This document shows, piece by piece, positions 8,961-61,949 of a stretch of DNA of 64,000 nucleotides (positions within the stretch are counted from its first letter, which is position 1; each line of letters starts with the position of its first letter). The notes beneath the pieces were generated by a model, which saw nothing but the letters and a program-made list of their open reading frames with translations, had not been told where the DNA came from and ran no database searches. The position numbers and the translations under genes were made by a program. Source of the stretch: Takakia lepidozioides. Taxonomy: Eukaryota > Plantae > Bryophyta. Location: assembly GCA_030704615.1 (NCBI GenBank), contig CM060732.1, forward strand, positions 28,210,001 through 28,274,000, given 5' to 3'.

Positions 8961-10999
8961 CGAAAAGGGCTCGGTATGCTTCTTAAAACTTTAAACTTTT
9001 AAAAACCTTCTTTTTTTTTTCTTTTTTTTTAAATTTATTTAATGAAAGAGTGTGGATACGTAGAGCTTTATAACTAGGAGAGGAATAAATAACCTTTGTG
9101 AGGGTGCCATAGAGGCTGATCTGGGAAGGCTATGCTTCGTAACCTAAATTCAGCAAAGATTCAGAAAGAGATAAAGACAAAAGAGGAGAAGAGAAAGCCG
9201 ACGGCAATGCTAATAGTTATCCCTTTTTCTTCTGTACGGTTCGAAGGAAGGATGGCCTCTTGATTTCCCTTTCCTAAAACTACGTCTCCAATTAACTTTA
9301 AAACTCTTATTATAATAATAGGAAGGATGGTTTGCATTTAGTTTTCCCGTCCTCTTTTATATGATTTTTTGGTCTTTGTCCCCTTTATGATCCAAAAGAT
9401 ATATTGCCTTATGGTGGACTGGGGTTTTTATTTTTTTCCCCCTTATAATTCCAAACAAATGGCTAGTTGTGCATAGCTCCTCTTTGGGAATAGTGGAATA
9501 TACTTTTGAAAACTCGTCCATTTCTTTATCATAAAGTTGTTCAATAACAGAGATGTTACATGAGGGAGGTCTTACCTAGAGAAGGCACATCACACCTCTG
9601 TAAGCTTAGTATGGCCTGACAATACCATGTGAACTGCCTCAGAATACATACAACTGCTTGAGAACACTGGTCCTCATGATCTCTCCATCTACCTCGTCCA
9701 CCACATTGAGATTAGGGATATCCTCATTTTCAATGTGCAGATTTGCAAGACATCTACACATAGTTTCCTCTACACTAAGGTCAACTTGTAGATATCAGTT
9801 GAGCATTCCCGTCCACCAAATCATCATTCACGCAAACAAATTGGTTATAAAATTTGCTCGCATAGCTTCTCCCTGGAAAGTGTAGCTGGAGCGCGGAATG
9901 GCCCATGGGCATTGGGTGTCTATTTTTTACTTTTATTCTTAAGAAAATAAATGTTTTCTCTTCTCATGTGCCTAATTCTAAGAAATTATAGCATGAAGAT
10001 GCCTAATTTGAGAAAATGTTTTCAAAACATGCGTAATTGATTGATTTTATTATTAGGCGCAAAAATGCCTAATCCGTTGTACAGGGACGGTAGCTACAAA
10101 GATATCCAACTCTTCCCAATGGATTAAGTTTATAATTGGCTTCTCTTTATTCTAAAAAAGAGACCACACATCCCATCAGTGTCAAAGATTACTTATAACC
10201 CCTTGTTGTGGCTTCCATAGGTGTCACCTCCTCTCTTTTGCTGAAAAATACTTCCATTATGTGCCTTCTCCAGATAACACCTCACTGAATTATTATCTTT
10301 GTTATTGAATAAATTATGAAAAATAAATGGAGAAACCGAGTGAAAAGGCAACGATTCTTTTAATCAAATTCGTAGGTGGTTCAACTCGATGCATTGTTAG
10401 AGACCGAACACAGCACTAATGCTTCCACACTACTTAGGGCGTCATTCCATATGATCAAACCCAACCACATGATGATCTCATGGCCAGGTCTCCAACTTCT
10501 GCTGGATCTTTCTATAATGTGCAACACTTGGACAGAAACCGGTCTGACCTCCTAACTCTCCATGAGAAGCTGAAAGTTAGGAGATCGGTCAAGATCTTTG
10601 ACTTTCACTGGCTATATGACGTTGTTTTTTGCAATCATTAGACGAGAAAGTTTCTCTCTTTGCGTTTTTACTTGGCTTTCCTTTCATCGCGCACTTCGGC
10701 GATCGCATTGTGTGAACCAACCGAGAATGAATAGTACATGAATATGGATCTAAAATGATACCTACGTTGAATGAAGAAGACTCACATGCAGCGTATGAAA
10801 CATGAGTAATGGAAATAAATGGATCAATTGATGGTGTATACCACCGAGCTCAACAGAGATGCATTCCATGCAGTTATAAGAAAGATGCATGGCTATTTTT
10901 TGAGATGATGGTCTTGCTAGCTCCAAAATGAACCAACGGAATAAAATATGGCCCTCAAGTAGGTTCCATAAGGTATCAATACCAATCTTGTCCATCGCA

Positions 11000-13144: not shown

Positions 13145-13459
13145 GACGACGGGCAGAACTAGTGGGATAGGGGCAGACAGGGACTCAAGACCTAGAATCG
13201 GGGCATGAAGGTGTGCACGATGGTGGGATAACCGCGATCGCAAGGTGTGGGTTTTTCTCAATGTACAGTGACGAGCGGAGCTGGTGGGATAGGGGGCAGA
13301 CAGGGACTTAAGACCTAGAATTGAGGCATGAAGGCATGCACGATGGTGGGACAACCGTGATCGCAAGGTGTGGCTTTTCTAAATGTACAATGACGAGCGG
13401 AGCTGGTGGGATAGGGGATAGACAGGGACTCAAGTCCTAGAATCGGGGCATGAAGGCAT
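13145..13459 (+). repeat. ~122-bp tandem repeat (continues at 24397-24580)
   Basis: Unit GACGAGCGGAGCTGGTGGGATAGGGGGCAGACAGGGACT...GCATGAAGGCATGCACGATGGTGGGACAACCG..ATCGCAAGGTGTGGC is repeated, and is split exactly at GCAT by the retroelement. Confidence 0.85.
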
Positions 13460-13907
13460 TGTCGTGCGCATACATATCGCTACACAACTACATCGCTGTC
13501 CAAAACCACACAATACATGTGCACACCACACACTAGTATACCACTAGTCTACCACTAGTCCAGCCACTAGTCCAACCACTAGGCTACAACTAGTCAGTCA
13601 CTAGGCTGCCACTACGCTGCCCACTATGGCAGTCACTAGTCCACACAATCGCCCCCCTAGCTGGTGCTTAGGTCCCTCTAAGTCCAGGTAGCCACAAGAT
13701 GTGATAGTGACCATAGCCTCACTAAGTCATCCACCACTATCCCTACTACACTCAAACTCGATAGATCAAGAGGCCGGGTGCAAGAGTTGCCCCATCGTTA
13801 GTCGCCGTCTTGCAACCTGTGAACTTGAGCTTGGGATCTCATGTATTGACTCCTATGAGCTTGGCCTCCCATGTCTTGTTAGCTGCCTCCAGTCATGTCC
13901 ACTGCCA

Positions 13908-16097
13908 CTATCCCAAGCAGTGTGGACACAACCAATCTCCGTCAGGAACCTTCTCAAGAGGTGGTGTCAAGCATCCCATATGCCAACCCCTTGAGCACCG
14001 ATCACACACCAGCATGGTGGCTGCCCCTTTGGCGGACCCACAGAGCATGCACCTCAAACCTGCAGGTACCACTGCCAAGTTTGGGTCAACTCTGCCATCG
14101 ACATTGGGAAGGTGACATGGCGCACAATTACGCACATGGTCTTTCCAAGTCATGCCATCCCGACCCTCTAAGATCAGGACCCCTGAGGGCAACACCTCTC
14201 GAACCCTCAGAATAACACGCCCTGCAGTAACATCCAGAGTCGTAGGAGCAGTCTGCTGCAAATAAACATAGTCACCAGGGCTAAACCTCCGAACCCCAGG
14301 ACGATATCCTCCACCACGTATAGTGGCATACCTCAATGTATCACGGTGTTGTGCAATGGCAAGGTTCTCAAAAGCCATGGGCATGACTTTCTTGAACAAC
14401 TCTGCACGCTGATCACATGCACGTACCCACACGTCCGGATCGTCAAGGTTAAGGACTTGAGCAGTGTCCCTACGAATGGCTGCAGGCAAATCCGGCTCTC
14501 GGCCAAAGAGAAGGAAATATGGTGAGAAGGAGGCAAGTGATGCTTGTTTGCTAAACCTGTAGCCCATGGCTAACCAAGGAACCTGAAGATCCCAATCTCC
14601 TAGGTGTCCCTTCTGCAAGCCATACTTGCGCAAACCCCTCTTCACCGTCTGAACAACTCTCTCTGCTAAGCCATCGGCCTCAGGATGATCCCGAGAAGTG
14701 GTGCGGTGGTCTATCAAGGCTTTATCACACAAAGCCTGAAACTCCCCCAAGAACTCTCTCCCTTGGTCCGTGAGTACCTCAGCTGGAGCACCAAATCGGC
14801 TAAGCACACGATCCAAGAATGCATACGCAGCCCCCTCACTAGCCTTGTCAGGCAATGGAACCAACTCAATCCACTTGGAGAAGTGCTCCACCATCACCAA
14901 CACATATCTGTGGTGGCGCATAGTCAGTGGCAACGGTCCTGCGAAGTCAAGACTCCACCTGTAGCCCAATCCCATGATAGGTAAAGGATGCAACTGTGGT
15001 GTAGGGGCGTTGAATGAAGCACGTACCCTGTCACACACCATGCACCTAGCCACAAACTGTTGCACCTCTGTATGCATACCACGCCACCAATACTGCCCCT
15101 GCAGTAAACTGTGAGTGCGTCGCACTCCAAAATGCCCCAACTCCTCATGGGCATGCCGCACTAACCGTGCACGCTGTGTGAGGTGAGGCACAATCCTCAC
15201 CCGACCATCCTCCCACACTCGAAGTAGGTGTATCCCCTCCCACTTGAACCTCTTGGCTCGTTGCAGGATCCGATCCCTCTCCCTGGCAGTCACAATGGCT
15301 GCCGTGTCTCCCGTGCGGAGGTAGTCCAACACAGCCGAATCCTCATGTATATCTCTGGCACCACCTAGCTCATCACTAGCCTCAGGGTCCTCAGACACTC
15401 CGTCTACAGTCATCCCTGTTGTAGGTCCAATCTGACCTCCCGATGCCAAGATACACAAAAATGCAGATGCGTGCCATCCCGGCACCATCTCCTCGTCCGT
15501 CTCACCATGCCACCGAGCTCCAGTGTCATCCTGCTGGCTCATGCATGGATTGCGACTCAATCCATCCGCATCCCGATTGACCAAACCCGGTCGATGCACA
15601 ACCTGAAAGTCATACTCCTGGAGTATCAGTGCCCACCGTGCAAGCTTCCCTGTAAGCTTGTCTGACTCCATCAACCACTTGAGTGGCTGGTGATCCGTGA
15701 CAAGGGTGAAAAGATTGCCGTATAGATAGCACCTGAAGTGTGTCACGGCCCACACTGCAGCTAAGCACTCTCCCTCATATGAGCTGTACTTAGCCTCTGC
15801 AGCGTTGTTCGAGCGGCTAGCGTAAGCCACTACGAACTCTCTTCCCTCATCATCCACCTGTGTGAGCACCGCTCCAAGCCCCAGCATGCTCCAATCCGTA
15901 TGCAGCTGAAAGGGACGCCCCCTGATAGGTCGTCTCAAGATAGGCGCCGAGGTCAACCTTGCCTTGAGCTCTTGAAAAGCTCGTTCCTGCTCATCTTCCC
16001 ACTGCCACTCCTGGTCCACCTTGGTCAGCTTGGTTAGAGCCTTTGCAATGGTACTAAATCCCTTGACAAACCGTCTATAATAGTTTGCCAACCCCAT
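13908..16097 (-). CDS. RNase H - integrase - C-terminal PHD finger
   Basis: RNase H LHTDWS...YSSYEGECLA...TDHQPL. Integrase HHCC (HEELGH...CMVC) and D-D-E (SLDFAG / LTDQG / LAERVV). C4HC3 PHD CMLC...CDRC...WHMGC...WLCPHC at 13917-14051. Confidence 0.96.
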   Translation of the reverse strand: MGLANYYRRFVKGFSTIAKALTKLTKVDQEWQWEDEQERAFQELKARLTSAPILRRPIRGRPFQLHTDWSMLGLGAVLTQVDDEGREFVVAYASRSNNAAEAKYSSYEGECLAAVWAVTHFRCYLYGNLFTLVTDHQPLKWLMESDKLTGKLARWALILQEYDFQVVHRPGLVNRDADGLSRNPCMSQQDDTGARWHGETDEEMVPGWHASAFLCILASGGQIGPTTGMTVDGVSEDPEASDELGGARDIHEDSAVLDYLRTGDTAAIVTARERDRILQRAKRFKWEGIHLLRVWEDGRVRIVPHLTQRARLVRHAHEELGHFGVRRTHSLLQGQYWWRGMHTEVQQFVARCMVCDRVRASFNAPTPQLHPLPIMGLGYRWSLDFAGPLPLTMRHHRYVLVMVEHFSKWIELVPLPDKASEGAAYAFLDRVLSRFGAPAEVLTDQGREFLGEFQALCDKALIDHRTTSRDHPEADGLAERVVQTVKRGLRKYGLQKGHLGDWDLQVPWLAMGYRFSKQASLASFSPYFLLFGREPDLPAAIRRDTAQVLNLDDPDVWVRACDQRAELFKKVMPMAFENLAIAQHRDTLRYATIRGGGYRPGVRRFSPGDYVYLQQTAPTTLDVTAGRVILRVREVLPSGVLILEGRDGMTWKDHVRNCAPCHLPNVDGRVDPNLAVVPAGLRCMLCGSAKGAATMLVCDRCSRGWHMGCLTPPLEKVPDGDWLCPHCLG

Positions 16098-17042
16098 GAA
16101 AGCTCAAACTCGGCTCACATCCGTGGGGCGTGGAATTTGTGCAATGGCCTCTACCTTAGTCTGCTGTACCCCCAATCCTCCAGGATATATCATGTGACCC
16201 AGATACTCAATCTGGTTGTGGAAAAACTTGCACTTCCCCGGATGCAACTTCAATCCGTGCGCTCTCAAGCGCTCCAATACCACCTGAAGGTGTCTCTCAT
16301 GCTCCTCCATCGTAACACTAAAGATGATGATGTCATCTATGTAGCACCGAGCAAAGTCCACCCCTGCTAGAATCCTATCCATGACTCTCTGAAACTCTGC
16401 AGGAGCATTCTTAAGCCCAAATGGTAAGAACCGCCACTGATATAGGCAATCCTTGCCGTGCTCATTGATCCCCCAGAATGCCGTCTTCTGCTTGTCCGCC
16501 TCCTTGATTGGCAACTGGTGATATCCGGATCGTAAATCCAAAGTGCTAAAGGCCTTAGCATGCCCGATGGCATCAAAGATCTCCTCTGGTGTTGGCATGG
16601 CATACTTATCGGACTTGGTCTGACGATTTACAGGCCGGTAATCACCGCACATACGTCTCTCCGTCCAATTGCCATAGACATCCTTCTTGGCTGGCATCAC
16701 TGTGGCTGAAGCATACTCTCCACCAGAGAGCTCCACCAAACCTGCCTCCCAGAGATCTTGAGTCCTCATCTGAATCAAAGACCTCTCCATGTCACTGTAT
16801 CTATAGGGTCTCCGAAAGATTGGCGTGTCAGTGGCCAACTCAATACGGATCTCTTGACCCTTCAGTGCTCCCAAGTCCTTCAAACTGAAGGCAAAGCAAT
16901 TCCTGTAAGCCCTCAGGAACCGCCGTATACGTCGTCTCTCTCCTCCGGTGACAATGGGTCCAATGTCAGGCTCCCAATTGTCCTCCGTAACTACAACCTT
17001 AAGTCCAGTGGGCTTAGAGGTAGAGGACGCGTCCCGTGGTTG
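16098..17042 (-). CDS. Reverse transcriptase
   Basis: RMCGDYRPVN, FSTLDLRSGYHQ, LPFGLKNAP, YIDDIIIF, LGH. In frame with the post-DNMT linker (TAG at 17043-17045) and with RNase H (TGA at 16104-16106). Confidence 0.97.
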
Positions 17043-17339
17043 CTATGCTGCAACCTCTTGAGCAGTACTCCCTACCTGCTCAGTCAATGACAAGGCATCA
17101 TCCTGCCCCATCATCTCATCCTTGAGGACCTCCTCAACTCGAGAAGAATCCCCAACCTCATCCATCACAGCCGCCTTGGCTGCCAACTCCCTCTGATCCT
17201 CAAGCACTTCCCACGTGTGCCATGGATGCATGCACCCCGTGGTCCTCATATGCTCGCCCCCACTCACTGCCTGTACCGTCTCGGTAGGCAGAGAGACCAT
17301 TAAGGGAAGTGTATTCCGCACTCTGCGTTGCTCAGCTAG

Positions 17340-18313
17340 AGCCAAGCTGATAATCCAGGTCAAGCAATTGAGATCCATTGCTTGCCCCAACACTTGACGA
17401 CGTGATGCCTCAAAAGAGACGACACCGCCGTGGTACCAGTGGTAAAACCCATTGCCCGCTCACGCTCGTCAGCATTAGGCTCCACTAACTGCTGCAACTG
17501 AGCATCCCACAGGAGGCCAGGTCCACTATCCCGGAAAGCATGCGATCCTGGGAAGCTGAGCAGTGTAGGTAATGCTGCTCGTGGTTGACCCACCTTGTTG
17601 ACCACTGCCAAAGGCAAACGGTCATCGTGTCTCACATGCTGAGACTGCCTCCCTGTGTCCAGAATGTTATCCACTGTGAGATGTGCTGGCCGCTGCACCC
17701 CATCAAATGCACGCTTGAGCAGTGCGGGTGGCATCAAGTTAGTCCACCATAGCCGTGGACGATGAGCTCGTGACCCCACTGTAGCTGCATCTAGCAACAC
17801 TGCTGACCCAAGCCACGACCGGACTTGATGCACACTGGCCATCACCCTGGCCCGAGAATCGCCCATCAGTGGCACATTCTCCAAGATGTATGCTGGAGAT
17901 ACAGCTTGATGAAGCTGCAAGTGGCGCAAAACCCGCACCATCTCCCAAAACAGACCCGACCTCGAGTCTCGCAATCCATTGCCATGCCCGGCTGATGAAT
18001 GCCCTTGGCAGGGCCAACCTGCCACTACCAGATCAATGGAGCCAACCCGCTCCAAATCCTGCGCCCCCAGCAACGAAATGTCTGCTGGCAAGGCCTGCTG
18101 ATATCCACGAATTGCAGACACCGACAACAACTCAGGGTACCGCTGCACCAACTGAGCAACATGGCGAAGTGAAACGCGTCGTGCAGTCTCATCCCTCTCC
18201 ACATACAGGTAACGCCGAACTCGTACACCTGCCTGTAACACAGCAGCCAATCCGGTGCTGATCCCGCCAAACAAGTCCAGAAGACAAATGTCTTCATCCG
18301 GATACTGCCACAC
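17340..18313 (-). CDS. DNMT3-like C5-cytosine DNA methyltransferase domain within the Gypsy polyprotein
   Basis: Motif I LLDLFGGISTG, motif II YVERD, motif IV DLVVAGWPCQG (catalytic PC intact), motif VI YILENV, motif VIII RAHRPRLWWTNL, motif IX ERERAMGF. Motif X RRQVLGQAMD follows a 1-bp frameshift at ~17413. Confidence 0.93.
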
Positions 18314-18599
18314 AATAGGTGTGGTGTCAATGGAGACAACTGAGGTGGTCCTGGTGCAATCCCCGCACTCTCCTCCTCTCCTGACGGTACAAAAGCCTCC
18401 ACCCAGGCTTGTTGCACCCGTCGATCAGCATCCCGCTGCAAATCCTTGCTCGTGCCCCACAATGGAGTCTGAGCAACCATGGTAGGCAACTCCGCCATAC
18501 CATACATGTCATCCTGCTCTCCCGGAGGTGGTACATCCTCTGAATGAGCATTGCCCTCAAGCAACTCTCTAGGCCAACTCACTGCCGCTGTGAATGCTG

Positions 18600-19100
18600 C
18601 TAGTGTCGGCATCTTGCCTCGCTGGGCAACCGCAACTCCTCCTATGAACGTCACAGGGAGCTGCACACGCCGGCCCTCCCCTGACTGCCATGCAGGCCTA
18701 TAGGAAGCTGACTCCTCCCAAAAATCCAGGGTGAAGCCCATGGGGTACAACACTGCCCCACCAACCAGGACATCGTATGAGACTGCGTCTGTGACAATGG
18801 CCTTGGCTCGCATCACTGAGCCATCTGTAGGGTGATCCGGCCGTAGTCTGATAGCCAACTCACGCCGTGTCATGCCCCGAGCCTGCTCCGATCCTCCCAA
18901 GACGTCTGTATCTGGAAAGGACAAGGCTCCATATCCGCCTCCGTGAGGCCCAAGCCTGCAATAGCAGCTCTGCCCAGCATCAATGGCTGAGCTCCCGAGT
19001 CCAACAAGACCCGCAGTGGCCGGTACCTCTTGCCTGCCGGTCCACTCAAACAGAAAATGCCATCCTGGTTGTCTAACATGACAACTCCAGGTGTCACCAT
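18600..19100 (-). CDS. Retroviral-like aspartic protease domain
   Basis: RVLLDSGAQPLMLG catalytic motif and downstream YDVLVGGAVL (ILG.D-like) motif. A 1-bp frameshift lies near 18900. Confidence 0.8.
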
Positions 19101-19297
19101 GGCGCGCTCAATGGCTGGCCTAGCTGGCAGCTCCATCAACCTGGCAGCTGCAGCTTGCCATGGCGCCGCCGTGGCAGTCTTGACCCTCAAATCCGAGGAT
19201 CCCTCCGGCACTACACCTCCTACTATCTCCGCAGAAGATGAAGTAACCTCCCCACTCTCACAGAGTGTAGCTGCCAGCCTGAACACCTCAGCTGGTC

Positions 19298-21232
19298 TTA
19301 CCCCGGCGTCGCAATCATGGTAGCCGAGAACAATGGAGCCTGGCACACAGATGTGGCCGCTCCTAGCAGCACACTAGCTGCCGTAGCCTTGGCAACACTA
19401 GGTAGTGGTGCTACCCGTGTAGCTCTCCCCAATGGCATAGTAACCTCCGCCTCGGTAACAGTCGGGCGAGAACTAGGTGCCATGGATGGCGTCGACACTG
19501 TCTCCGCCAATGTGAATGACTGAGGAAGCCTAGCCTGACGGCTTGCCTCCCCACGCTGTGGATCCAACTCCACCTCTGCACCTCGTGGCTCAGGAACTCG
19601 TGCTGCTCCTCGAGTCACGGCTGCAGCAGACTCCACCTGCACTAGTGGTAGTGCTGCTCCACACATGAATCCCATGCCTCCCATATCTCCTCCCTCAGGA
19701 GCAGGAGGTGGACCATCCGGCCTTAGAGCCGGTACCACCTGAGCTGTAGCCATGGCAGCGAGCCTCTGCTCTAGCTGCTGAAGCCGGTTGGCCATGCCTT
19801 GGTCAACACCCTGACCTTCGCGTCCTTGGCCACGTTGAGCTTGCCCTTGGCCTCGTGGCTGGCCACCTCGTCCCCTCTGGGCTGCTCCACCTCGCCCCCG
19901 GCCACCATTGTTCTCTTGGAACTGGCCTGGGCGCAACTCAGGATGCAAACCATAACACTGAGCCTCTCCATGCCCGTGTTTGCCACAATGCCCACACTGT
20001 AACTGTGCAGGCTGTGCATGTGCCGGCCCTTTGCCTCCCTCTGGACAATCCTTCTTGACATGGGGTCCTCCACATGTCCAGCACACCACATCCGCCCGTT
20101 GTTGGCCAGCAAATGAAGGGAGAGACCCCTGCATCTGAGGTCCTCTCTGCCCTTCCCTGAGCTTCACCTGAGCCCCCTTGTTGCCTTGAGCACGTTGAGG
20201 TAGTGGTTGGCTAGGAGCACCACTACCCCGTGGTGTCTCCTTAGCAAATCCCACCATGACCACTCGTTCCTCCACCATGTTGAGCTCTATCCGCTCTGCC
20301 AGCAAAACACATTTGCTAAGGTGGGTTGGGCCGCTTGTAGGAGAGTTGCATCCCGCACCCTTCTCCTCAGCTCCTTGTCCAATATCCCATACCAGAATTG
20401 GACTGCCTGAGCTTCCGTAACCCCTTGGGTTACATTTATCAAGCGCCTCATACGAGTGAAAGCCTCCCTCAAGCTCTCGGTCGGCTTCCGTTGGAACTCT
20501 TGCAAGCTCCGCAACTTCTCTGTCCTCACCCCTTGGTAGTTCCCTCTCAACTCTTCGAAGAACTCCACGACAGGGTTGAAGGCAGGCACGGGTGCTAGTG
20601 CTGGTGCGGTAGTGGCTTGGGTGGACGTCGTAGCTACTGTACCACCAGTCCCACTGCTGCTTGCTGAAGCTGCCGGTGCAGCGGCGGGTGTAGCCACTGC
20701 CCTCGTGGCTCTAGTGCCCTAGTGATGGAGACATAATCGGGTGACCAGTACATCCTCCACTCCTCTATCTCAACCTCATGCCCCGCCTGAACTCATGGTA
20801 ATCATCCATAGGCGGCCCCTCAAGGTGCTGAAACAGCCCTTCCATGCCATGAAAGGCGTAAATAGTTGTGGATTGCGCATTTGCTGCAAATCACACCAAC
20901 TATCAAACTCTTGGATAAAATCATCCAACTCGATGGTGCCCACCGCCCCAGAGTACCTTCGTGGCCCCTTGGTAGCTCCATACATCTCCTCCATGTGTCC
21001 CACAACAATGGCAAAGAAACAACTTGCACCGCCGGTATGAGTCCTTCTGATTCACAATCCGAATCAGAACCTTCCGTAGAAGACACAGGAGGTGAAGGTG
21101 GCCTAAACCCACACACTCGCTCGTGTACCCACTAGTATCGCTAGTGCTCGAACCGGCACTATCCCCAGCAACTAGTGGCACCTCCGTGTTGACACTCAAC
21201 CGGTCATGAAATGTCCCTAACCCCCTCTCCAC
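19298..21232 (-). CDS. Gag (frameshifted pieces) with two CCHC zinc knuckles
   Basis: RRYSGAVGTIELDDFIQEFDSWC...; FQRKPTESLREAFTRMRRL (Retrotrans_gag-like Q..ES...F.R); CWTCGGPHVKKDC and CGHCGKHGHGEAQC. Confidence 0.8.
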
Positions 21233-21439
21233 AAGGTAACCGGGTAGAGAAACCTGTTGCGGGCTTATGGTTTGGAATACTAAGTTCCTAACATAGCCTA
21301 CACCTGAACTTGCATGACCATGGGAATATCATGAAGATACTCCTCAAACCGCCCTCCACGAGCTTCAAAATTCGGCCTTCCAGACCACATGCCCAGTCCT
21401 TAGTCCACCAGTGCCTCTACGAGTCAGCACAGGCCATCC

Positions 21440-22700
21440 ACAGGTCAACACGGGCCACCACAGACCTGCACAGGCCCACACAGCTCACTGGTCACAGCCG
21501 TCACAGTCCCACAGGCCACTGGGCACAGCCTGTCACAGCCCCTCACAGCTCGTCACAGCCTCAAAGGCCTCAGGCACAGCCTGTCACAGCCCAAAGGCCT
21601 CAGGCGCGGCCTGTCATAGCCCTCACAGCCCTTAGGCACGGCCTGTCACAGCCCTCACAGCCCGTCACAGCCTCAAAGGCCATGGGCACAGCCTGTCACA
21701 GCCCGTCACAGCCCCACAGGCCTCAGGACACAGCCTGTCACAGCCCCGCACAGCCCGTCACAGCCCCAAAGGCCACTGGGCACAGCCTGTCACAGCCGGT
21801 CACAGCCTGACACAGCCCGTCACAGCCCCACAGGGCACAGGGCACAGCCTGTCACAGCCTGTCACAGCCCATCACAGCCCATCACAGCCTCAAAGGCCAT
21901 GGGCACGGCTGTCACAGCCCATCACAGCCCATCACAGCCTCAAAGGCCATGGGCACGGCCTGTCACAGCCCCTCACAGCCCGTCACGGCCTCAAAGGCCT
22001 CAGGCACGGCCTGTCACAGCCCCTCACAGCCCCAAAGGCCATGGGCACGGCCTGTCACAGCCCCTCACAGCCCCTCATAGCCTCAAAGGCCTCAGGCACG
22101 GCCTGTCACAGCCCCTCACAGCCCCAAAGGCCATGGGCACAGCCTGTCACAGCCCATCACAGCCCCAAAGGCCACTGGGCACAGCCCGTCACAGCCCACA
22201 GGGCACAGGGCACAGCCTGTCACAGCCTGTCACAGCCTGTCACAGCCTGTCACAGCCCATCACAGCCCATCACAGCCTCAAAGGCCTCAGGCACGGCCTG
22301 TCACAGCCCCTCACAGCCCATCACAACCCCAAAGGCCATGGGCACAGTCTGTCACAGCCCGTCACAGCCCCACAGGCCTCAGGGCACAGCCTGTCACAGC
22401 CTGACACAGCCCGTCACAGCCCCACAGGGCACAGGGCACAGCCTGTCACAGCCCATCACAGCCTGTCACAGCTTGCCACAGCCCGTCACAGCCCGTCACA
22501 GCCCCAAAGGCCACTGGGCACAGCCTGGCACAGCCTGACACAGCCCGTCACAGCCCCACAAGGCACAGGGCACAGCCTGTCACAGCCCATCACAGCCTGT
22601 CACAGCTTGCCACAGCCCATCACAGCCCGTCACAGCCCGTCACAGCTCGCCACAGCCTGACACAGCCCGTCACAGCCCGTCACAGCTTGCCACACATGGC
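21440..22700. repeat. ~10-bp TCACAGCC(T/C)(G/A) minisatellite in the Gypsy 5' leader
   Basis: About 1.2 kb of TCACAGCCTG/TCACAGCCCG/GCACAGCC units with higher-order AAAGGCC spacers. Confidence 0.95.
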
Positions 22701-24559
22701 CGCTCTGGCAGTTTAGCCATTTCTCCAAGGGGTTTAGCCACGCCAAGCTAGGGTTTGTGTCTCTTGGACTCTAGGCTTCTTTCCACCGAGCTATGGTGGC
22801 CGTGAGGAAATCAGCAAGGTATCCTTGCTCTTTCGGCTCCCACACACCACCATAGTAGCCCTAAGCCATGAGGTGGTTGCCACAAACCAAGCCTTCTTTC
22901 TCACTTAGCCTACCCAAACACGCCACTAAACTCAATGGCAAACAACCAAGCCCTGCTGGTTCCCAGCCCTTGTGAGCACTCATTCAAGCACTCTCCTTGC
23001 CATAGCATCTGTCTTAGAGCCTATTCCAGCCCTCTACACCTGTTGCTTCAAGAGTTGCGCTCCCTTCAAGCTTGAAGTTGAAACCCCAACTCACATAGGC
23101 CCTACAAGTGCTTTTCTTTCACTCCAAGTGGAAACCAGCCCTAGACCTTCCGTTCTAGCTCTCTAAGGCTTGAAAACAAGAGCCTCAATGGGCTGAAGGC
23201 ATGCTCCACACATGCCCCACTCTCACCATAAGAGAATCAGCTCCTTTGCTTCATTTCTTGCACCCACAAACCTGATAATACAAGCTTCAGCAGGCTGAAA
23301 GCATGCTCTACATGCCCTACAGGGAAACCAGCCCCTTCCTTCCTTTCTTGCACTCCCACACCTAAAAGTGCAAGCCTTCACCAGGCTGATAGCATGCTCC
23401 ACACATACATTGCCCTCACATAAGGGAAGTCAGCCCTTCCCTCTTCCTTGCTTGCCCTCCAAGCTTGAAGATGGAAGCTTCAATGAGCTGAATACATGCT
23501 CCACACATGCAACCTCTTCACACAAGAGATATCAGCCCCCTATCTTGGCTCCTTGGCTCCTTGATGCTCTCTATGACAAGACTAAGCACTCCATAGCTTT
23601 TGCCAAGCTCCTGAAACCCTAAGGCTTACATTTCCAGCCACAAGACACTTCTCTTGTGGTGCAAGAGCTCTTCTTCCAAGCTCTGTAACCCTAGGTGCAC
23701 ATTCCATGGCCTTGCCGCACCTCTTAGCTCTTGTTCCAGCCCTGCTCTCGCCATGACAAGAGCCCTCTCAATGCTGAAGCTCGAGATTGAAACCCAATCT
23801 CACCATACTCCACAAAGTGCACTGATTTGCCCCAAGCCAAATCAGCCCTTTCGCTTGGTCCTGCAGTATGGTGCTTTCATCTCTGAAGCTGAAGATCGAA
23901 TGCCAAGGTTTACCACCTCGTAACCCACATCGCCTCCGCTTCTAACAACCAAGAGTTCCACGGTGCTCCTTGCATAACAACTTGGTTTCTCTCATTCTCA
24001 AGCAAAAACCACAAGTGCTACAACTAACTCGTATCTAGCACTCATAGATACGAGCTCATCTTTCTCGAGTGATAAAGAAGAAGAATACAAGCACAAGCTC
24101 ATGCGAGCTCACAAAGCTGAAGCATAAACTCATGCATATATAACCTCATCACTCAAATACAAGTCAAGCCAAGTGCACCCCACGCCATGGGGAATCCACA
24201 CTACGGCGCCATAGCTAGGCGCGGTGAGGCTCAACTCGAGAAAGATGAGCCTCCCGCGCTTGCCGTGAAGATAACCACTCCAGGGCCTAAATCTGCCTTG
24301 ACCCCTGGATTGACACTTGGGCCAATCCCAAATGTCAATATGTAAAAGCTAGCTATTTCCTAGCTAGTTTCACACTAGTGGTAAAATAACTTGACAGCAT
24401 GCACAATGGTGGGACAACCACGATCGCAAGGTGTGGCTTTTTCTCAATGTACAATGACGAGTGGAGCTGGTGGGATAGGGGGCAGACATGGACTCAAGCC
24501 CTAGAATCGGGGCATGAAGGCGTGCACGATGGTGGGACAATCGCGATCGCAAGGTGTGG

Positions 24560-26920
24560 CTTTTTCTCTATGTATGATGTGAAGAAGTTTGTCCATCTTG
24601 CAAATGCGGGCTCTTGGCTCTTGTTAGACGTACCATGATTTTGTATTCTTCCTGATGTTTACAAGGTTCTTGGGAGAGTCAGGTTGGTCTTAGCAGGTCG
24701 TGTTTCAATCTCCGCTCGCTCAGCTGCACCGTGGTGGTTCTCATGGACCAATCTGCCATTACCAGACTACAGACACAAGTAGTACACACAAGAGGTCCGT
24801 ATGGGTTCATGGGGAGTCAAATCCTCCATGGGTCATGACACAAGGTTGAGGACAATGTGGTAAGGGCACCTTCTTCTTCGACCTATTTCAGAGCTTGCAT
24901 GAGTTTTTTTACCGATCCTTACCGATGGTGGGACAATCGCAATCGCAAGGTGTGGCTTTTCCTTAATGTAGGATGTGAAGAAGTTTGTCCATCCTACAAA
25001 TGTGGGCTTTTGGCTCCTGTTAGTACCATGATTTGGTATTCTTCCTGATGTTTACAAGGTTCTTGGGAGAATCATCTTGGTCTTAGCAGCCCGCTGATTC
25101 ATTTCCTGATTCAACCTATTTCAGCCTGTTTTGCCCTCTTATCAGACTCGGGCCTGATATGCATATTGAATTTTGTTAAGTTAGCTCGTTGGTGCAAGAA
25201 AGAGAGTCAGCTTGGTCTTAGCAGGCTGTGAGGGCACCTTCTTCTTCAACCTATTTCAGCATGTTTTGCCCTCTTATCAGACTCAGGCCTGATATGCATA
25301 TTGAATTCTGTTAAGTTAGCTCGTTGGTGCAAGAGAGAGAGTCAGCTTGGTCTTAGTAGGCCGTGATGGCACCTTCTTCTTCAACCTATTTCAGCCTGTT
25401 TTGCCCTCTTATCAGACTCGGGCCTGATATGCATATTGTAATCTGGAAAGAGGTCGACATGTTTGCAAAATGAAGGCCTTGCTTGGTGCCTGCAGAATCC
25501 ATTGCAATGTGGAGATGGCTAAACGTGCGGCATGAAGGTACCTTCTTCAACACATTTCACACTGTTTTTCCCTATTACCACAGTCCCTAAATTTTCATTT
25601 TGAATTCTGCAAGTTAGCTCGTTCGTGATGTGAGGTTGCATGAGTTTTATACCGATCTTTCACGATGGTGGGACAACCGCAATCACCAAGTGTGGCTTTT
25701 CTTAATGTACGATGTGAAGACGTTCGTCCATCTTGCAAAGGTGGGCTCTTGACTCCTGGAGTACCATGATTTGGTATTCTTCCTAATGTTTACAAGGTTC
25801 TTAGGAGAGTCAGCTTGCAGGTCTTAGCAGGTCGTGTTTCAATCTCTCCTTGCTCAGTTGCACCGTGGTGGTTCTCACAGACCAATCCGACATTACCTGA
25901 CTACAGACAAACAACACACACAAGAGGTCATTTTTGGGTTGATGGTCGGTCAAATCCTCCATGGGTCAAGGACAATATTGTAAGGGCACATTTCAGCCTG
26001 TTTTGCCCTCTCATCAGACTTGGCCCTGAGATGCATGTTGAATTCTGCATGGGTGATAAGTAGGGTTGGGTGTTTGCTGGAACAATTATAGGCTGTCATT
26101 GTCAGCTGCTAGCAGCAAGGGAAGGATGTATGCATGATTTGTGCAGAGCTTGGATAGCTGAGGAGCAGGGGTAGAGTCTAGTGGGTCCAGATTCATCCAA
26201 GAGGGCGGGACTTCAAGCTCACGATTACCTATAATTCTCTGTGGATCAATAGCTGCAAGAAACCTGCATGGATAGATGGTCAACTGGAAGCCGCAGTAAT
26301 AGCGGCACAATTGATAAAATCGGGCACTACTAATGAAGGCACCTTCTTCAACACATTTTCACCATGTTTTTCCCTCTTATCATAATTGGCCCTAAATTTT
26401 CATGTTGAATTATGCAAGTTAGCTGGTTGAGTGAACCTTTGATAGTTTGGAGTGACTTTGACATGGTACTGCCAATGTGACAACAGGGAAGTATCCAGAA
26501 ACAGGTTACAGCTGAGACGAGGAGAAGCTGTGGAATGAATACTTTTCTAACCCCAGTCCATGGTGGGACAATCGAGGCAAAAAGGTGAATGCCTGTTGGA
26601 TTATAGAGAGTAGCAGATGCAATTGACCACAGTGATAAGTTGAGTTGGGTGTTTCCTAGAACAAATCTAGGCTGTCATTGTTAGGTGCTAACAGTGAGGC
26701 AAGGATGTATGCATGATTTGTGCAGCGGCATGGATAGCTGAAGGAGCAGGGATAGAGTCTGGGTCCAGATTCATCCAAGAGGGCCGGACTTCAAGCTCCA
26801 GATTACCTATGATTCCATGTAGATCAATAGCTACAAGAAATCTGGTGCATGGGTAGATGGTCAACTAAAGGTAGCAACTGCAACGGCACAGTTGATAAAA
26901 TCAGGCACCTCAACCATGAC
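24560..26920. repeat. Mosaic of locally duplicated 100-350-bp blocks
   Basis: Repeated blocks include GCACCTTCTTC..TATTTCAGCCTGTTTTGCCCTCTTATCAGACTC and CAGCTGCACCGTGGTGGTTCTC, plus the duplicated 26060-26330 / 26635-26910 segment. The same blocks recur at 34940-35000 and 35680-36100. Confidence 0.75.
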
Positions 26921-31699: not shown

Positions 31700-34500
31700 G
31701 AGGACATGGGCATCAAGATTCCCAGTCATCAGAGGTAATGAGCACATTAGGCCTATTTTCTTTCCTAATAATGATTGGTGTGACACAATGGTTGTACTCA
31801 CTGTATCAGGCCTATTCTCATCCTTATTGAATCCAAACAGCCAGAGGGACAAGATGCCCCTAAGTGTACAGAACCTGAACGTCCTGAATCTGAAGGATTT
31901 GGTACTCAAGAGTTTACACAAGACGAGCAAAATCTACACATGGGGTAACTGTCCCCCCTTTGCAGAACGGTTGGGCGTCCAGGAGCAATCCCAAGCTACC
32001 TAGACGACAAACAATTCACATGCAAAGGGCTGGCTTGCGGCTGGCCACTTTCAACTTCTCAGGGCTTACTAACCAAAGGAAACAACTCGAAGTGGGACAA
32101 GTCCTTCGGACTAATGATATTCATATCTGTGCTGGGCAAGAAACATGGGAAACTTCGGATAAACTGGTTGGAGATGTCAATGGTTATAAATGGGCAGGTA
32201 GGATGTGTACTCTCAAGGCAGCCTCTGCCAAACGCGGTCAAAAAGGGGTTGGATTCTTTATCCGTGATTTCTTGTTTGATAATTGTGAAATTATCAACAA
32301 GGGTTTGAGGTACGAACATAGTATCTGGCTAAAACTGAATCTGAAGGGCGGCATGAGTACGAAGGACCTCTTTGTGGGTTGTGTTTACATGCCCACAGAG
32401 GGGACCCTTAGTGCTGACGCAGACAAAGCCTTCGAAGATGTAAAGCTGGACTGTGCTTCGTTCCTTGCCAAAGGTCAGGTAGTGCTATTGGGTGACTTCA
32501 ATGCCCGGGTGGGCAAAGGGCTCCATCAGGACGATATCATTGGGCCTTTTGGTGAGGACGAGCCCTCTATAAAGAGTGCTGCAATTTGAAAACCAACAGA
32601 GAATTGTGGGCGAGGCACTATCAGCTCCGGAAAGATATCAATCAGCTTGTTAGGTCTCAGAAGAAATTATACTGGGATAAGTTATACAGTGAAATAAACT
32701 CAAACCACCATGGTGGTAATGACAAGAAATTATGGTTGGCCCTTCAACGTTTGTACAAGCCTAAAAACGGTCAGCAAGTACAAGCGCTGAAGACTACTAA
32801 AGGTGCAGTGGTGACTTCATCGGTTGACATTGTCAAAACCTTTGAAAATCACTACAGTATCCTTGGCAGAACTTCTAGGTCTAACAGTGAGGGGTCTTCT
32901 GCTGAATGGAGGGACACAGTTGGAAAAATTGTTCCTATGATTCAAAACAGCCCTGATGAACTGGAGTATATTTTAATGGCTTATAACGCTCCCATTAGTT
33001 CTTCTGAGATTGTGGAAGCAATTGAACATTTAAATGGATATAAAGCTGGTGGACCTGATGGTATTGTCAACGAGCTTATCAAGCACGGTGGCGATCCCAT
33101 GATAGAGGCCCTAGTTCTCCTCTTTAACCTTATCTGGAAGACTGAAATGATCCCCTTTCGCTGGCGACAGGGGGTCATTGTCAGTCTATACAAGAAGGGT
33201 GACAGAGAAGAACCGGGGAACTACCGTGGCATCACACTCAGGAGTTGATTAATTGCGCAAAGAGATACTTTGATCTTTGGGGGCTAGAGGCTAATGTTAG
33301 CAAATGTGCAGTGGTAGCATTCAACGACAGAGGAGAGGGAGGAAGTGATCTTAAGTGGTAGTGGGGTAGCCAAGAGATCCCGGTCCTCCCTTCCTACACT
33401 TACCTGGGCGTTGAGTTTTCCTCCAATTGTTATTGGGATGCACATATCCGGAAAGTTGTTCGAACTGGCAAGGGCAAAGCTCTGGGGCTCACTAATTTTT
33501 TCCACTGCAGAGGGGTCATCTCTGAGGTTAAGAAAACCATGCTTTGTCGCGTTATTAGACCTGCCTTGGAGTACGGATCTGCTATATGGGTTGATAACTC
33601 CAAGCAGGCTAAGTCTCTAGAATCCATTCAAGTGGGGGTGCTTAAGGAGTGTATGTCAGCATGCTCCAAAACAGCCAATGTGGCTGTTCGGGGTGAGTTT
33701 GGCATTCCATCCTTAAGCTCCCGACGAGATGAATTCAAGGTCAGATGGTGGGGTCAGCTGCAACATATGCCCAACACCAGATATCCTAAGTTGATTGACT
33801 CTATATCTTGGAAACATGACCGCCCTGTCAAACAGGCTAAGTCCTGGCAGAAGAGAGTAGAAAAGATTCTCAAGGATCTGGACCTGGATCCGCAAGTCTT
33901 GACCCTGCTGGATAAATCTGCCTTAGAGGTTGTAGTGTCTGAGGCCATGTCTGTTGCCATGAGATTGTCTGATGAAAATGAAGTTAGGCAGAGAACTTCC
34001 CTAAACTTGTTTCCAGTCAGTGACATGGGGGTGGACATCTTGGATGACCTCAAGGGTCTACCCACTCTCGGCACTAGAACTCAGGGCAAGAAGCCTACCT
34101 TTGAACAGCAAACAGAAGCAGAGAGGAAAGGGAGAGTGCAATTGTCCGTTGTGTGGGCAATCTGAAGACAATATTCATTTTCTGATACGCTGTCCGGGTT
34201 CTCTCACCAAAGAGAGGCTCTCTTCAATTCTATCAAGGGAATTGTGCCTGTACCCCTGTTTACCAACTTTGAAAGTCTCGAGGCTGAGCCAAAAGCCCAG
34301 GCCCTCCTGAGGCCTAGTTTTTGGGCAAATCACACACAGCAGATTGATGCTTGTGTGAAGGGTTTTCTAGAGGATATCTGGAAAACCCGGATTAATTCCT
34401 TATACGATGGTAAGTCTTACTACCAACGTCAGCCCTGTTCCTTTTGTTCCCACTGAAACTGGGCACGGGGTCAATGGCCACAAGGCTACGGCAAACAACG
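31700..34500 (+). mobile_element. Internally deleted APE-type LINE (RTE/RTEX-like by inference)
   Basis: APE: LRLATFNF...AGQETW...CVYMP...LGDFNARVG (31960-32560). RT N-part KAGGPDGI...LYKKGDREEPGNYRGITL (32586-33248). C-part IRPALEYGSAIW and CPLCGQSEDNIHFLIRC. The YADD core is missing. Confidence 0.85.
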
Positions 34501-34989: not shown

Positions 34990-35665
34990 AGACACGGTCT
35001 TGCCAACTGAATGATGCAGGTTCACTTGGGAGAGTGCACTCCCCCTTTCCTCTCTGCTTCTGTTTCATGTTCAAAGGTAGGCTTCCTTCCCTGAGTTTAA
35101 ATTTCAGTCTAGTGCCAAGAGTGGGTGGACCCTTGAGGTCATCCAAGATGTCATCCCCCATGTTACTGACTAGAAACAAGTTCAGGGAAGTTTTATGCCT
35201 AACTTCATTTTCATCAGACAATCTCATGGCAATAGACATGGCTTTGGACACTACAGCCTCTAAGTCTGATTTATCCAGCAGGGTCAAGACTTGCGGATCC
35301 AGGTCCAGGTCCTTGAGAATCTCTTCTACTCTGGCCTTGGGAAAACACCTTTTGATCTCAGTCCAAAAAGTGGTCAGAGGTACCAATATCAGTTCTGTCG
35401 ATCAACACATTGGCACACTGGGGGAACAAATTTTTGTCCATTATGATATAGTCCACAATGGAACGTTCCCCAGTTTGGGATTTCTCACGAGTCCACTGCA
35501 CTTGGTCACCTCTTGTCTTGTTAATCAAGGTCAAAAGCTGAAGCTCTTCCAGATAGTTAATTAACCGTCTGCCATTAGAATTCAGCTCGTCCTCACCAGA
35601 AGACCCAATGATATCGTCCTGATGGAGCCCTTTGCCCACTTGGGCATTGAAGTCACCCTACAATA
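34990..35665 (-). mobile_element. Second, inverted fragment of the same LINE
   Basis: APE end (GKGLHQDDIIG...SIVDYI...TSDHF) is fused directly to a C-terminal segment nearly identical to 33850-34140. Confidence 0.85.
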
Positions 35666-36104
35666 GCACCACAGAGATGAAGAGAAGCTTTGGAATGAGA
35701 CACTTTTCTGACCCCAGTCAATGGTGGGACAATGTGGGTGGATGGTCAACTGGAAACAGCAGCGGCAACAGCGCAATTGATAAAGCAAGGCACTGTTGAT
35801 GAAAGGTACCTTCTTCAACGTATTTCAGCCTGAGGGCACCTTCTGGTTTGACCTGTTTCAGCCTGTTTTTCCCTCTCATCAGACTCAGCCCTGAAGCATA
35901 TGTATTGAATTCTGTAAGTTAGCTCGTTGGGTGGATCTGCGGTGCTCTGGAGTGACTTTGCAAGTTGTTGCCGAGGTGGTAGCATGACAGTACCTAAAAA
36001 AAGATAATAGATAGAACAAGGGACTGCCTATGATTCCATGTGGAATGATAGCTACAAGAAACCTGGATGGGTAGATGGTCAACTGGAAGCCACAGTAGTA
36101 GTTT

Positions 36105-50109: not shown

Positions 50110-51330
50110 TGCTCAAATCCCCTAAATGAACCCTCCAGATCAGCAGTGAGTCGGAGTATTGAAGGCTTTCCGAGGGTTCACGATGGTCCTCAAATTGAGG
50201 GTGGATCCTCGGTCAGACCCTTCTCCTTTCGGGAAGCGGGCGACACTCTTCTCCTCTCGGGTCCTCCTGGGTGTAAAGTCCAAGATGCAGGTGAAGAACA
50301 GAAATATCCCAGAAACTTTATCGACCTTCCCCAACATTCCTCACCCTCCCCGTTCAGTACGCAGGGTCTGGTTTATCCAACCCCCAGGGCAACCGTCGGG
50401 GACTCGGCTACGGCTCCACTGCACCTTGTTCCGTCTCTTCCTTGCATATCTCCCCAGCACGAGGGTTGGACAGCCCAAATTCGCAGGAGTTAGGTGACTT
50501 AAATTCATTTCTCGTTCCTTGCTCATTCTCCTAGTTTCACTTAGTTTGGGGTCTGATATTCATCTGTTGCTCTAGGTCAGAAAATCTGCAGATTATGACC
50601 TTCATGTCAAACGACGTCTGCATTGGAATGCAGTTCCGAGGTAAATTATTCTTTTGTTGACTTTTAACTCCATCCAGGATGTTAAGTGCTCAAGGGATAA
50701 TTTTCTGTGCTTGCCTGTTGTTGCCCCTCTACTCCCCCTGTCGTTCAATGGCAAAACATCTCCAACATCGACACAGCCTGACCCTGAACTGGTGGCATAA
50801 TGTTCTGCACCAAAGAGGTGAAAAAAAACCCCCGAGCCATTTCCTTCCTTTGCAGGAAATCTTTCCAACGGACAAAAGGCTGACGAGAAAAAAAAAAACG
50901 GACTCCAAACACATGAGGACTCCCTCGGATGTTGTGGCGCCTCGTCAATCCAAGCCCACGAGAATCCACCGTTCCTCTACGAAACCTTCAATGGTAAATT
51001 TCAAAACCATTTCTCCACTTTCGTTTGCAGTTTGTTTTGCGGTCCCAAACTAACTCCGTAATTTTTATACAATCGAATAAGGAGCCGCAGAACTTCTTGA
51101 ATGCGCCTCCCGACAAGGTGCGTCCACTAACCTCCACTTGACAGCCGATGTTCATCTTTTCATGATCTCTAACTCTTCGATATATCGTCTACTCTTGGTC
51201 CTTTACAGTATTCCATTGTCGGGACACTAATGTCTCGGCAAACGTAGATGTCACTCTGAAACTAAGAAACACTACATCGTGTTGTTTCTGACGGCGGGAA
51301 CACTTGAATTTATTTCCTTAAATTGCGCAG

Positions 51331-52481
51331 GATGGCATCGTCCATCAACCTTCATCTGCCACATCGGGGAAGAGGAAACGGATGTTGTTAATATTGAGTG
51401 TCAACAGACTCCTCTGCTATCGGCTACCTCCAACCGGCGGTGAATTGTTTAAGGAGAGATTTCGTTTCAAGAAAGTTACAGTTCATGTTCTTGATAGACC
51501 TTTTGTGGTTCCCCGGCCCCGAGTCTTGGAGTTTCTCAACCTTGCGTTGATGCATTTTCATGTGGCGATTTGGTCATGTGCTGACAGAGATGTTCTTTAT
51601 AGGATGCTCGAGTGCTTAGATCCCACGAAAATTGCGAAGAAGTTTTGCTTCATCTGGTCAGCTGAGGATTTCAAAGACACTACCAATTACATCATGCCTG
51701 GGATGAAATATCTCGTTAAGGATATTCGCACTATTTTTGCCAAGTACCCTGGTACACCCTTTGCAATGCAGGGACAAATACTCCTTGTCGATGATGAGCC
51801 ATCAAATGGCCTCCGAAACCCACCAAATACTGGATTCTTCCATATTTCATACAAGCCATCACCAAAAGGCTTGATTGACCAGGATGATATGACAAAAGTT
51901 GTGTGGCCATATATATTGAAAATGGCTGCAACTTCAACAGTCGTAGATTACATCAGCGATAACCCTGCCAAGTGTTCTCGTAAGCCTATTGGTCGCGACC
52001 ACGCCTATTGGGCTTGGTATGAAAGATATGTTGATCCTCGTGCTTGGATCCCACAACAAAAAGAACCTGATTATCTTGGTATGTACTTATCCCACTATTT
52101 GTTGCTTATGGAGAATTTGATCTTAAAAGTGTCTTCCACTTGCACTTTTACCTTATCATTTTTTCTACAAATGTTCCACATTTCAGCTGACATTTGTCAT
52201 ATGAAAAATTGTTTTGCCCAGTCACATTTAAGGAGCGAATTCGAAAAGAAGAAGAAGAGCTTCGTGATTGGCAAGAATGGCGGGCTTCCCGGCAGGCTTC
52301 AAGGGCATCAAGAGATTCAACAAGTAGAGTTCCAAGTAACATTTCGGATTATAATGTTACTACTAGGTTTGAGTTCTCCGAAAGTATTTCCGTTTCCTCT
52401 GGTGCGGAGACCGTTGCAAATGGTTCTGGTGATCGGAGGCGTCTTCGAACACATGCCTTGACTGCGAGCCGTTTGGGATGA
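51331..52481 (+). CDS. FCP1/NIF-like HAD-fold protein with degenerate catalytic motif
   Basis: LILSVNRLL (DxDxT position), VPRPRVLEFL, VAIWS, LVKDI, ILLVDDEP..GLRNP.N. Exons 51331-52078 and 52222-52481 join in frame. Upstream exons are not resolved. Confidence 0.75.
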
Positions 52482-61693: not shown

Positions 61694-61949
61694 GTGAGAT
61701 TGCACCGCAGAAACCATCAGCGGGACTTACTGGATTTTTTAAATGGATTTGCCCATGCAGGATTAGCATGTCCCCCTTTTTAGGATGCTAGCTAGTGCCA
61801 AGTTTTTGTTTCTCGGCAAGACAGAAGGCCACGTTGCCAAGTTTTGGCTAAACCCTAATATATTTTAGCCAAAAAATCACGTTATTCTTAGCCAAATAAC
61901 TATATTGTTAATAGTTGAATTATTGAAGGGGAAGAAGAGTTAAATCTCA

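Follow-up and report, generated by a model that had tools for sequence, protein, structure and literature searches.

Our analysis concerns a Gypsy retrotransposon of 10,937 bp that lies on the minus strand at 13460-24396 of a 64-kb stretch of Takakia lepidozioides DNA (the window). The element has the layout A-coding-B, in which A and B are the two halves of a single long terminal repeat (LTR) equivalent, rotated so that they occupy opposite ends of the insertion. We conclude that this feature is real and that it is the repeat-less form of a Gypsy-Dnmt3 clade with permuted LTRs. The LTR of the family is almost certainly split at an internal palindrome. Our preferred explanation, which we hold to be probable, is that this palindrome is used by the integrase and that the window copy is a one-LTR insertion product. 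The split repeat layout has been known since 2018, from KnitGypsy-Dnmt3; what the window adds is the repeat-less form.

The insertion could be delimited to the base, as a model's reading of the letters alone (the sequence-only reading) had held, because it interrupts a 122-bp host tandem repeat whose left part occupies 13148-13459 and which is back in register at 24397. When the last letters of the left flank (GAAGGCAT) and the first letters of the right flank (GCATGCAC) are compared with an intact host unit (GAAGGCATGCAC), the duplication is exactly 4 bp, and the target-site duplication (TSD) is GCAT, at 13456-13459 and 24397-24400. The termini read TGTCG..TGACA on the plus strand, so that the copy has the TG..CA ends and a TSD within the 4-6 bp expected of canonical LTR elements. 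Two complete direct LTRs are absent from it. Comparison of the element with itself (blastn, word size 7) gave no direct repeat shared by the two ends, which bears out the earlier remark that no LTR pair is visible, and no long terminal inverted repeat; the long self-matches are confined to the 5' leader.

The missing repeat becomes visible in other copies of the family. We aligned contigs of the public runs X1, X2, X5, X6 and X8 to two window stretches covering both element ends, and found the family to be highly repeated, with 85,099 contigs aligned in X1 and 94,669 in X2. Contigs that cross 13460 continue into the opposite element end together with a GC in X1, X2, X5 and X6, which come from three studies, and the reverse junction, from 24398 into the left end, is present in 20 contigs of X2, three of X5 and one of X6. 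A second junction joins 13648/13649 to 24070 in X6 and in 12 contigs of X2; the agreement there is 0.98, and there are therefore no varied flanks at this position. The 63 X2 contigs at 13460 have an agreement of only 0.43, as a mixture of the junction and varied flanks would give. At 24396 one contig diverges past the end (X5 record 16), with no varied flanks among the matches listed, and run X8 has no contig on the right end, which is not proof of absence. Contig depth approximately doubles across 24070-24396, with the step at 24070, which is a hint only, as depth is not a copy number.

Because the contigs hold two junctions, the family must have two repeat halves. Half A (24070-24396, minus strand, 327 bp) is predicted to comprise the downstream U3, R and U5; it starts with TGTCA, the right half of the palindrome, ends in TATCA, and is defined by the junctions at 24070 and 24396/24398, by the depth step at 24070 and by its duplication in relatives. 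Half B (13460-13648, minus strand, 189 bp), bounded by the junctions at 13460 and 13648/13649, is the predicted upstream U3 and ends with CACGACA, the left half of the palindrome. Through both junctions the window's family shows the arrangement A-coding-B-A-B, as do six complete relatives, whereas the window copy itself is A-coding-B.

The sequence-only reading had found neither a primer-binding site (PBS) nor a polypurine tract (PPT), and this has to be corrected. A PPT, CTAGGGGGGCGA in the sense direction (13660-13649, minus strand), directly precedes B, and relatives have a G-tract at the same place. Directly after A, the 17-nt stretch 24070-24054 is a perfect complement of 24250-24234; the former is the predicted PBS (24054-24070, minus strand), found at the same position with different sequences in relatives, and the latter the predicted self-primer at the likely RNA 5' end (24234-24250, minus strand). 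The fold of the 216-nt leader has a z of -7.25, with none of 200 shuffles equally stable, and the 64-kb window contains no tRNA gene. A PBS after U5 and a PPT before U3 are thus both in place, as judged by sequence only, and the family carries a hidden LTR, B+GC+A, bounded by the PPT and a self-priming site of the Tf1 type. Under standard priming rules the LTR of the complementary DNA (cDNA) would be B-GC-A, of about 518 bp, and the inserted window copy is this unit opened at the GC. We set aside the idea that the hidden LTR itself has TG..CA ends, since every family has its own start of B.

The relatives used for comparison were the best 80 of 516 metagenome matches together with three genome-contig loci (83 loci), which form four families with integrases 48-80% identical, plus locus L083 at 43%; no relative was found among viral contigs. 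Eleven are complete at both ends, six being A-coding-B-gc-A-B and five A-coding-B, and their TSDs are a perfect 4 bp in seven, carry one mismatch in two and are absent from two, with a perfect 5-bp TSD in none. From 14 loci with a 5' A we removed one duplicate and L074, whose start is unclear, and the remaining 12 clean 5' ends all start with TGTCA at the palindrome next to an unrelated flank. In none of them does B stand upstream of A, nor is there an ordinary 5' LTR, so that the ordinary LTR pairs and 5-bp TSDs by which the sequence-only reading would have been overturned did not appear in other copies. The 3' end was readable in 56 of the 83 loci (27 were excluded for a contig end, lack of a B match, an interruption or a run into A-PBS), giving 44 distinct 3' ends, of which 22 are single-B and 22 are B-A-B. 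No site had both forms, and the 10 sites sampled more than once had the same form in both contigs. Loci L015, L048, L069, L070 and L074, interrupted near the 3' end, do not enter the counts, nor do L006 and L081, whose order is B-gc-A-PBS and which could be collapsed assemblies, tandem forms or circular ones.

The two joints of the long form differ in character. At the B-A joint, 32 of 32 loci have a spacer of 2 nt, within CACGACA-GC-TGTCA or a decayed version of it, and the palindrome is kept in all four families and in L083, whose contig terminates at the same palindrome (CACGACAGCTG, contig end 10362). The A-B joint is ragged, with seven forms in 14 distinct copies of family f2 and two odd forms in seven copies of family f1, and it contains remnant bases of the PBS or PPT, as end-joining would give. 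The two B copies of a long element, B1 and B2, stand in direct orientation 280-360 bp from each other, and in most loci the difference between them is 5-15%. Their raw identity was too noisy for use and was replaced by a test for shared private variants, in which B1 and B2 within one f2 copy do share such variants (n = 12, p = 0.0006; 0.002 without C>T/G>A), so that B2 is recopied in each cycle. Self-priming pairs of 15-24 nt, differing in sequence and located at the same place, were present in 6 of the 14 loci tested, and pairs of 16 and 13 nt in L006 and L081, respectively.

Some loci showed further peculiarities. Positions 1-127 of L081 are identical to 9159-9285, and this contig, which reads coding-B-gc-A-PBS, is either a collapsed repeat or a one-LTR circle. 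The second A stops after 56-57 bases in L015 (1795 onward) and L048 (2605 onward), which belong to two families, and in L015 the broken second A is followed by a piece of the same family in inverted orientation.

In sum, the clade's copies end at fixed positions in mid-LTR, lack the central two bases, carry a 4-bp TSD, have a ragged end-to-end joint and occur in two layouts. Inserted copies never end at the predicted cDNA ends; they start with TGTCA and end with CACGACA, and the central bases are gone. It is very probable from these sequences that the integrase acts at the internal palindrome instead of at the cDNA ends. The steps that would surround this observation are drawn from sequence anatomy. 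The RNA would start inside A and prime itself just after A, with the plus strand begun from the PPT before B, and the product would be an ordinary cDNA with a B-GC-A LTR at both ends. The integrase would then cut on each side of the central GC and join the two CA-3' ends to the target, a cut that we place at the palindrome because of the inserted ends, the lost GC and the 4-bp TSD. Joining of the free cDNA ends combined with a cut at the upstream palindrome would give A-coding-B-gc-A-B, which would be the only form that keeps the downstream R and is able to copy itself again. A cut in a one-LTR circle or a gapped circular intermediate, or alternatively cuts at both palindromes of the linear cDNA, would give A-coding-B without any repeat, a short form that is predicted to be a dead end. 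For the window copy, the comparison of sequences leads us to favor, by a modest degree, direct insertion in the short form.

A more extended account is possible, which we offer tentatively and would place just short of probable. The attachment site of the integrase of this green-lineage clade may have moved from the cDNA ends to the LTR palindrome, with circular cDNA, which is ordinarily a dead end, as the integration substrate, end-joined two-LTR circles giving the autonomous A-coding-B-A-B and one-LTR circles giving the repeat-less A-coding-B (about half of insertions). The element's own DNMT3 would be made on the Gag side of the read-through stop; by methylating one palindrome, which contains a CpG, it may choose the cut site. 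DIRS elements also have a circle model.

Several results weigh against integration at the palindrome with direct entry of the short form. The mirror layout A-B-gc-A-coding-B would be expected in about half of the 5' ends if a two-LTR circle were cut equally, and it is found in 0 of the 12 clean ones, which led us to reject the idea that single-B 3' ends come from two-LTR circles opened symmetrically. A bias to the upstream site is therefore needed and is unexplained; that the LTR holding it is completed earlier, or that the other site is methylated, are ideas only. Single-B copies of f1 are slightly more diverged than double ones (median 0.889 vs 0.912, p 0.10), as a later deletion predicts. 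On the side of our preferred explanation, neither f1 nor f2 has a significant age difference between single-B and double 3' ends (p 0.10 and 0.68), a comparison that does not decide between the two. The approximately twofold depth step at A hints that the short form is a minority in the window's family, with the reservation that depth is not a copy number. The shared-variant test was non-significant in f1 (n = 7, p 0.07 and 0.14), only 6 of 14 relatives yielded a self-priming match of at least 15 nt at the A end, those of the others being too decayed or not found, and the two two-ended loci that have no TSD, L047 and L061, imply that some short-read contigs may be chimeric.

The alternative that survives best, which we judge unlikely and nevertheless the most serious, is that the window copy was inserted in the long form, A-coding-B-gc-A-B, from which B1-B2 recombination afterwards removed gc-A-B, leaving the TSD intact, as a counterpart of solo-LTR formation. 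It draws on the direct repeats at 280-360 bp, its product would look the same as a short copy inserted directly, it agrees with the older trend of the f1 short copies, and it accounts for why no A-B-gc-A-coding-B form is needed. Against it, though weakly in each case, the short form makes up half of the 44 distinct 3' ends in two families when the repeats are only 95-190 bp long, f2 shows no age difference, and the multiply sampled sites are identical in form in both contigs. The suggestion of the sequence-only reading that this may be a rearranged copy could hold only as such a precise B-to-B deletion, and fails otherwise.

Doubtful to a somewhat greater degree is a route with no covalent circle, by which the integrase would cut the upstream palindrome of the linear cDNA retain the short B piece as its second end and insert both, host repair then joining the A-end to the B-start; if the B end of the downstream LTR were taken instead, the short form would result. 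This overlaps with our preferred explanation, being a variant of its last two steps, and it accounts for the ragged A-B joint and for both layouts with one fixed 5' end. It demands, however, that a loose fragment of 95-190 bp stay in the complex, for which there is no direct evidence, and it still requires that the upstream site be preferred.

That assembly reduced B-A-B to B, in the window or in the relatives, is very improbable. In its favor, the relatives are short-read metagenome contigs and 2 of 11 lack a TSD; against it, the 5-15% difference between B1 and B2 in most loci resists collapse, and short copies with matching TSDs exist (L002, L021, L071 and the window). Least credible, to the point that we give it hardly any weight, is an element that really has no LTRs or is akin to Ginger, moving as DNA or priming with neither PBS nor PPT: the window copy does lack a terminal repeat and has TG..CA ends with a 4-bp TSD, yet reverse transcriptase (RT) and RNase H are present, as are the PPT and self-priming site, there are no long inverted repeats (Ginger has 40-270 bp), and the family junctions, in contigs that equal the window's ends base for base, rebuild an LTR that is split and rotated, as the relatives' layouts confirm. 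Of the three options of the sequence-only reading, an LTR-less lineage drops out, as does its Ginger parallel, and an atypically replicating Gypsy lineage is the one supported.

Three published phenomena were also considered and set aside, on the parts of the papers that were available. Autointegration (PMC7197481) has scattered break points there and the cut site here is fixed. Tandem LTR arrays (PMC11899658) would produce the B-gc-A joint, yet neither the A-B joint nor TSD-flanked termini in mid-LTR. The CG..CG termini and 3-bp TSD of Troyka (PMC12440569) are unlike the ends of the window element.

The coding region, all on the minus strand, is that of a Ty3/Gypsy element with additional domains, in the order gag, protease motif, C5 methyltransferase, RT, RNase H, integrase and PHD finger; gag, protease, RT, RNase H and integrase follow one another as in Ty3/Gypsy, with the gag match below the cut-off and the protease recognized from its motif only. 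The gag region (19298-21131), with a Retrotrans_gag piece and zinc knuckles, is split over several frames (PF03732, E 5e-4, below the curated cut-off). The protease-like region (18870-19373) is broken and has no Pfam match; its LDSGA motif was recognized by eye and is found at the same place in relatives. A DNMT3-like C5 cytosine methyltransferase domain with a broken end occupies 17360-18424 (PF00145, E 3.6e-13), has DNMT3A as its closest solved structure (E 5e-10) and is present in 22 of the 24 relatives screened; a Dnmt3-type methyltransferase within the coding region is what characterizes Gypsy-Dnmt3 elements. RT (16104-17042, with a premature stop at its end; PF00078, E 7.5e-34) is nearest to Ty3/Gypsy RTs by its matches to solved structures, namely 4ol8 (E 8e-40) and Ty3 Gag-Pol (E 7e-39), with retroviral RTs at 1e-13 or weaker. 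RNase H, integrase and PHD finger share an open frame of 731 aa (13908-16103) in which the HHCC and D-D-E motifs are kept. In the 10 open reading frames (ORFs) of the element that were scanned, rve and Integrase_H2C2 matched and no recombinase did. With its frame shifts and premature stop the window copy is defective, and the element is a broken copy of a Gypsy retrotransposon bearing DNMT3 and PHD domains.

Among named proteins the nearest come from Riccia, Calypogeia, Sphagnum and Marchantia, which makes a bryophyte host likely. In Marchantia polymorpha, many annotated genes (proteins P0123-P0136) are 60-76% identical to the element's DNMT domain and are probably retrotransposon copies. Between DNMT and RT the window element has an in-frame TAG (17043-17045) followed by CAA CCA, and a lone in-frame stop stands at the same place in the open-frame relatives L006 (L006:5083) and L081 (L081:3489), followed by CAG TTA and CAA TCA, respectively; in L008 the stop is at L008:4661. 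The TAG context is matching or decayed in 12 of the 20 loci scanned and in none of the seven f2 loci. CAR-YYA after a stop is what we take to be a read-through motif, a search for which gave no result, and the conserved TAG is likely, from its context, to be a programmed read-through stop, in which case DNMT would be produced at Gag levels. In the GC-rich distant relative L083 (integrase 43% identical) the DNMT lies instead between RNase H and integrase (L083:5833-6783). Loci L081, L082 and L083 are within prokaryotic genome bins, probably as eukaryotic contamination.

The 5' leader of the window copy holds degenerate repeats of about 100 bp (23130-23540) and a 1.2-kb array of 10-bp units in about 114 copies (21423-22694). 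Left of 23860 the contigs of three runs diverge from the window into one common other sequence, and most copies therefore have a 5' leader different from that of the window copy.

The nearest published system is KnitGypsy-Dnmt3 of Klebsormidium nitens (de Mendoza et al. 2018, PMC5890265), for which a figure legend gives a DIRS-like repeat arrangement, the DIRS arrangement being given elsewhere in the same paper as A-coding-B-A-B. It shares with the window element the Gypsy domain set and a Dnmt3-type methyltransferase, and differs in having the A-B tail that the window copy is missing and in having its DNMT within the Pol ORF, whereas here a stop codon stands between DNMT and RT. The available text of PMC5890265 describes neither a mechanism nor a TSD, palindrome, priming sites or short form. 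Three Klebsormidium integrases (54-58% identical), which may not be those of the published KnitGypsy-Dnmt3, fall, in a tree of 30 rows that has no outgroup, among the split-LTR families. By its DNMT domain and its family's repeat layout the window element fits the Gypsy-Dnmt3 group of Klebsormidium, and it may share descent with the published element. A 2026 preprint, in the part available, mentions streptophyte Gypsy-DNMT3 in passing.

Other systems share single properties with the element, as far as the accessible portions of the papers describe them. Plant Ty3/Gypsy elements (Neumann et al. 2019, PMC6317226) have the same PR-RT-RH-IN order, TG..CA ends, TSD and PPT, 12% of elements being predicted to self-prime and 6.2% having 4-bp TSDs, whereas the inserted ends here are mid-LTR and neither of them carries a complete LTR. 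Elements entered that survey only with both a 5' and a 3' LTR, a design by which split layouts would escape it. In Tf1/sushi (PMC7175516) the RNA 5' end likewise pairs just after U5 in place of a tRNA, but the pairing is 11 nt in Tf1 as against 13-24 nt here, Tf1 has ordinary LTRs, and the window element has no chromodomain. The prototype foamy virus integrase (Delelis et al. 2005, PMC1180852), also a DDE integrase, is reported to cut the palindrome of the two-LTR junction internally, which yields processed ends; its palindrome arises from joined cDNA ends, whereas ours is encoded mid-LTR, and the joint at which the cDNA ends really meet is ragged and uncut. The repeat layout of DIRS (PMC5890265) is identical to that of the long form, whereas DIRS has a tyrosine recombinase and our element a DDE integrase, Gag, protease and a 4-bp TSD. 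Ginger (Bao et al. 2010, PMC2836005) has a Gypsy-like integrase and Gypsy-like termini, but Ginger1 is a cut-and-paste DNA transposon with inverted repeats of 40-270 bp and CCGG/CCGT targets, none of which is seen here.

The window has further features outside the element. The host 122-bp repeat lies within a larger repeated region (24397-26908 and 35585-36101) with 135-bp units and dispersed copies, which is probably another mobile element. An ORF of the endonuclease/phosphatase family (31894-32589, plus strand) and a separate RT ORF (54022-55275, minus strand) are probably remnants of long interspersed nuclear elements. A 379-aa ORF without introns at 51322-52461 (plus strand) has a NIF phosphatase domain (E 5e-8) and stands among repeats, and 61295-61783 (plus strand), which encodes a molybdopterin cofactor-binding domain (E 3e-14), is probably one exon of a gene for xanthine dehydrogenase or aldehyde oxidase.

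Our literature search, which left most subscription papers, Repbase reports and theses outside its coverage, found no paper on mid-LTR integration or on repeat-less copies of a Gypsy clade. In LTR elements and retroviruses, linear cDNA is integrated by its two ends, and one- and two-LTR circles are by-products, according to the available part of PMC7197481. A natural and widespread clade whose inserts always start and end mid-LTR would be a standing exception to this rule, and productive use of circles by a DDE integrase becomes testable with short DNA substrates. The Gypsy and DIRS layouts would be linked by convergence. Repeat-less copies, which make up half of the sampled 3' ends, escape both LTR finders and searches for split repeats, and the clade is therefore likely undercounted in bryophyte and algal genomes, where several of its DNMT domains are already annotated as Marchantia genes.

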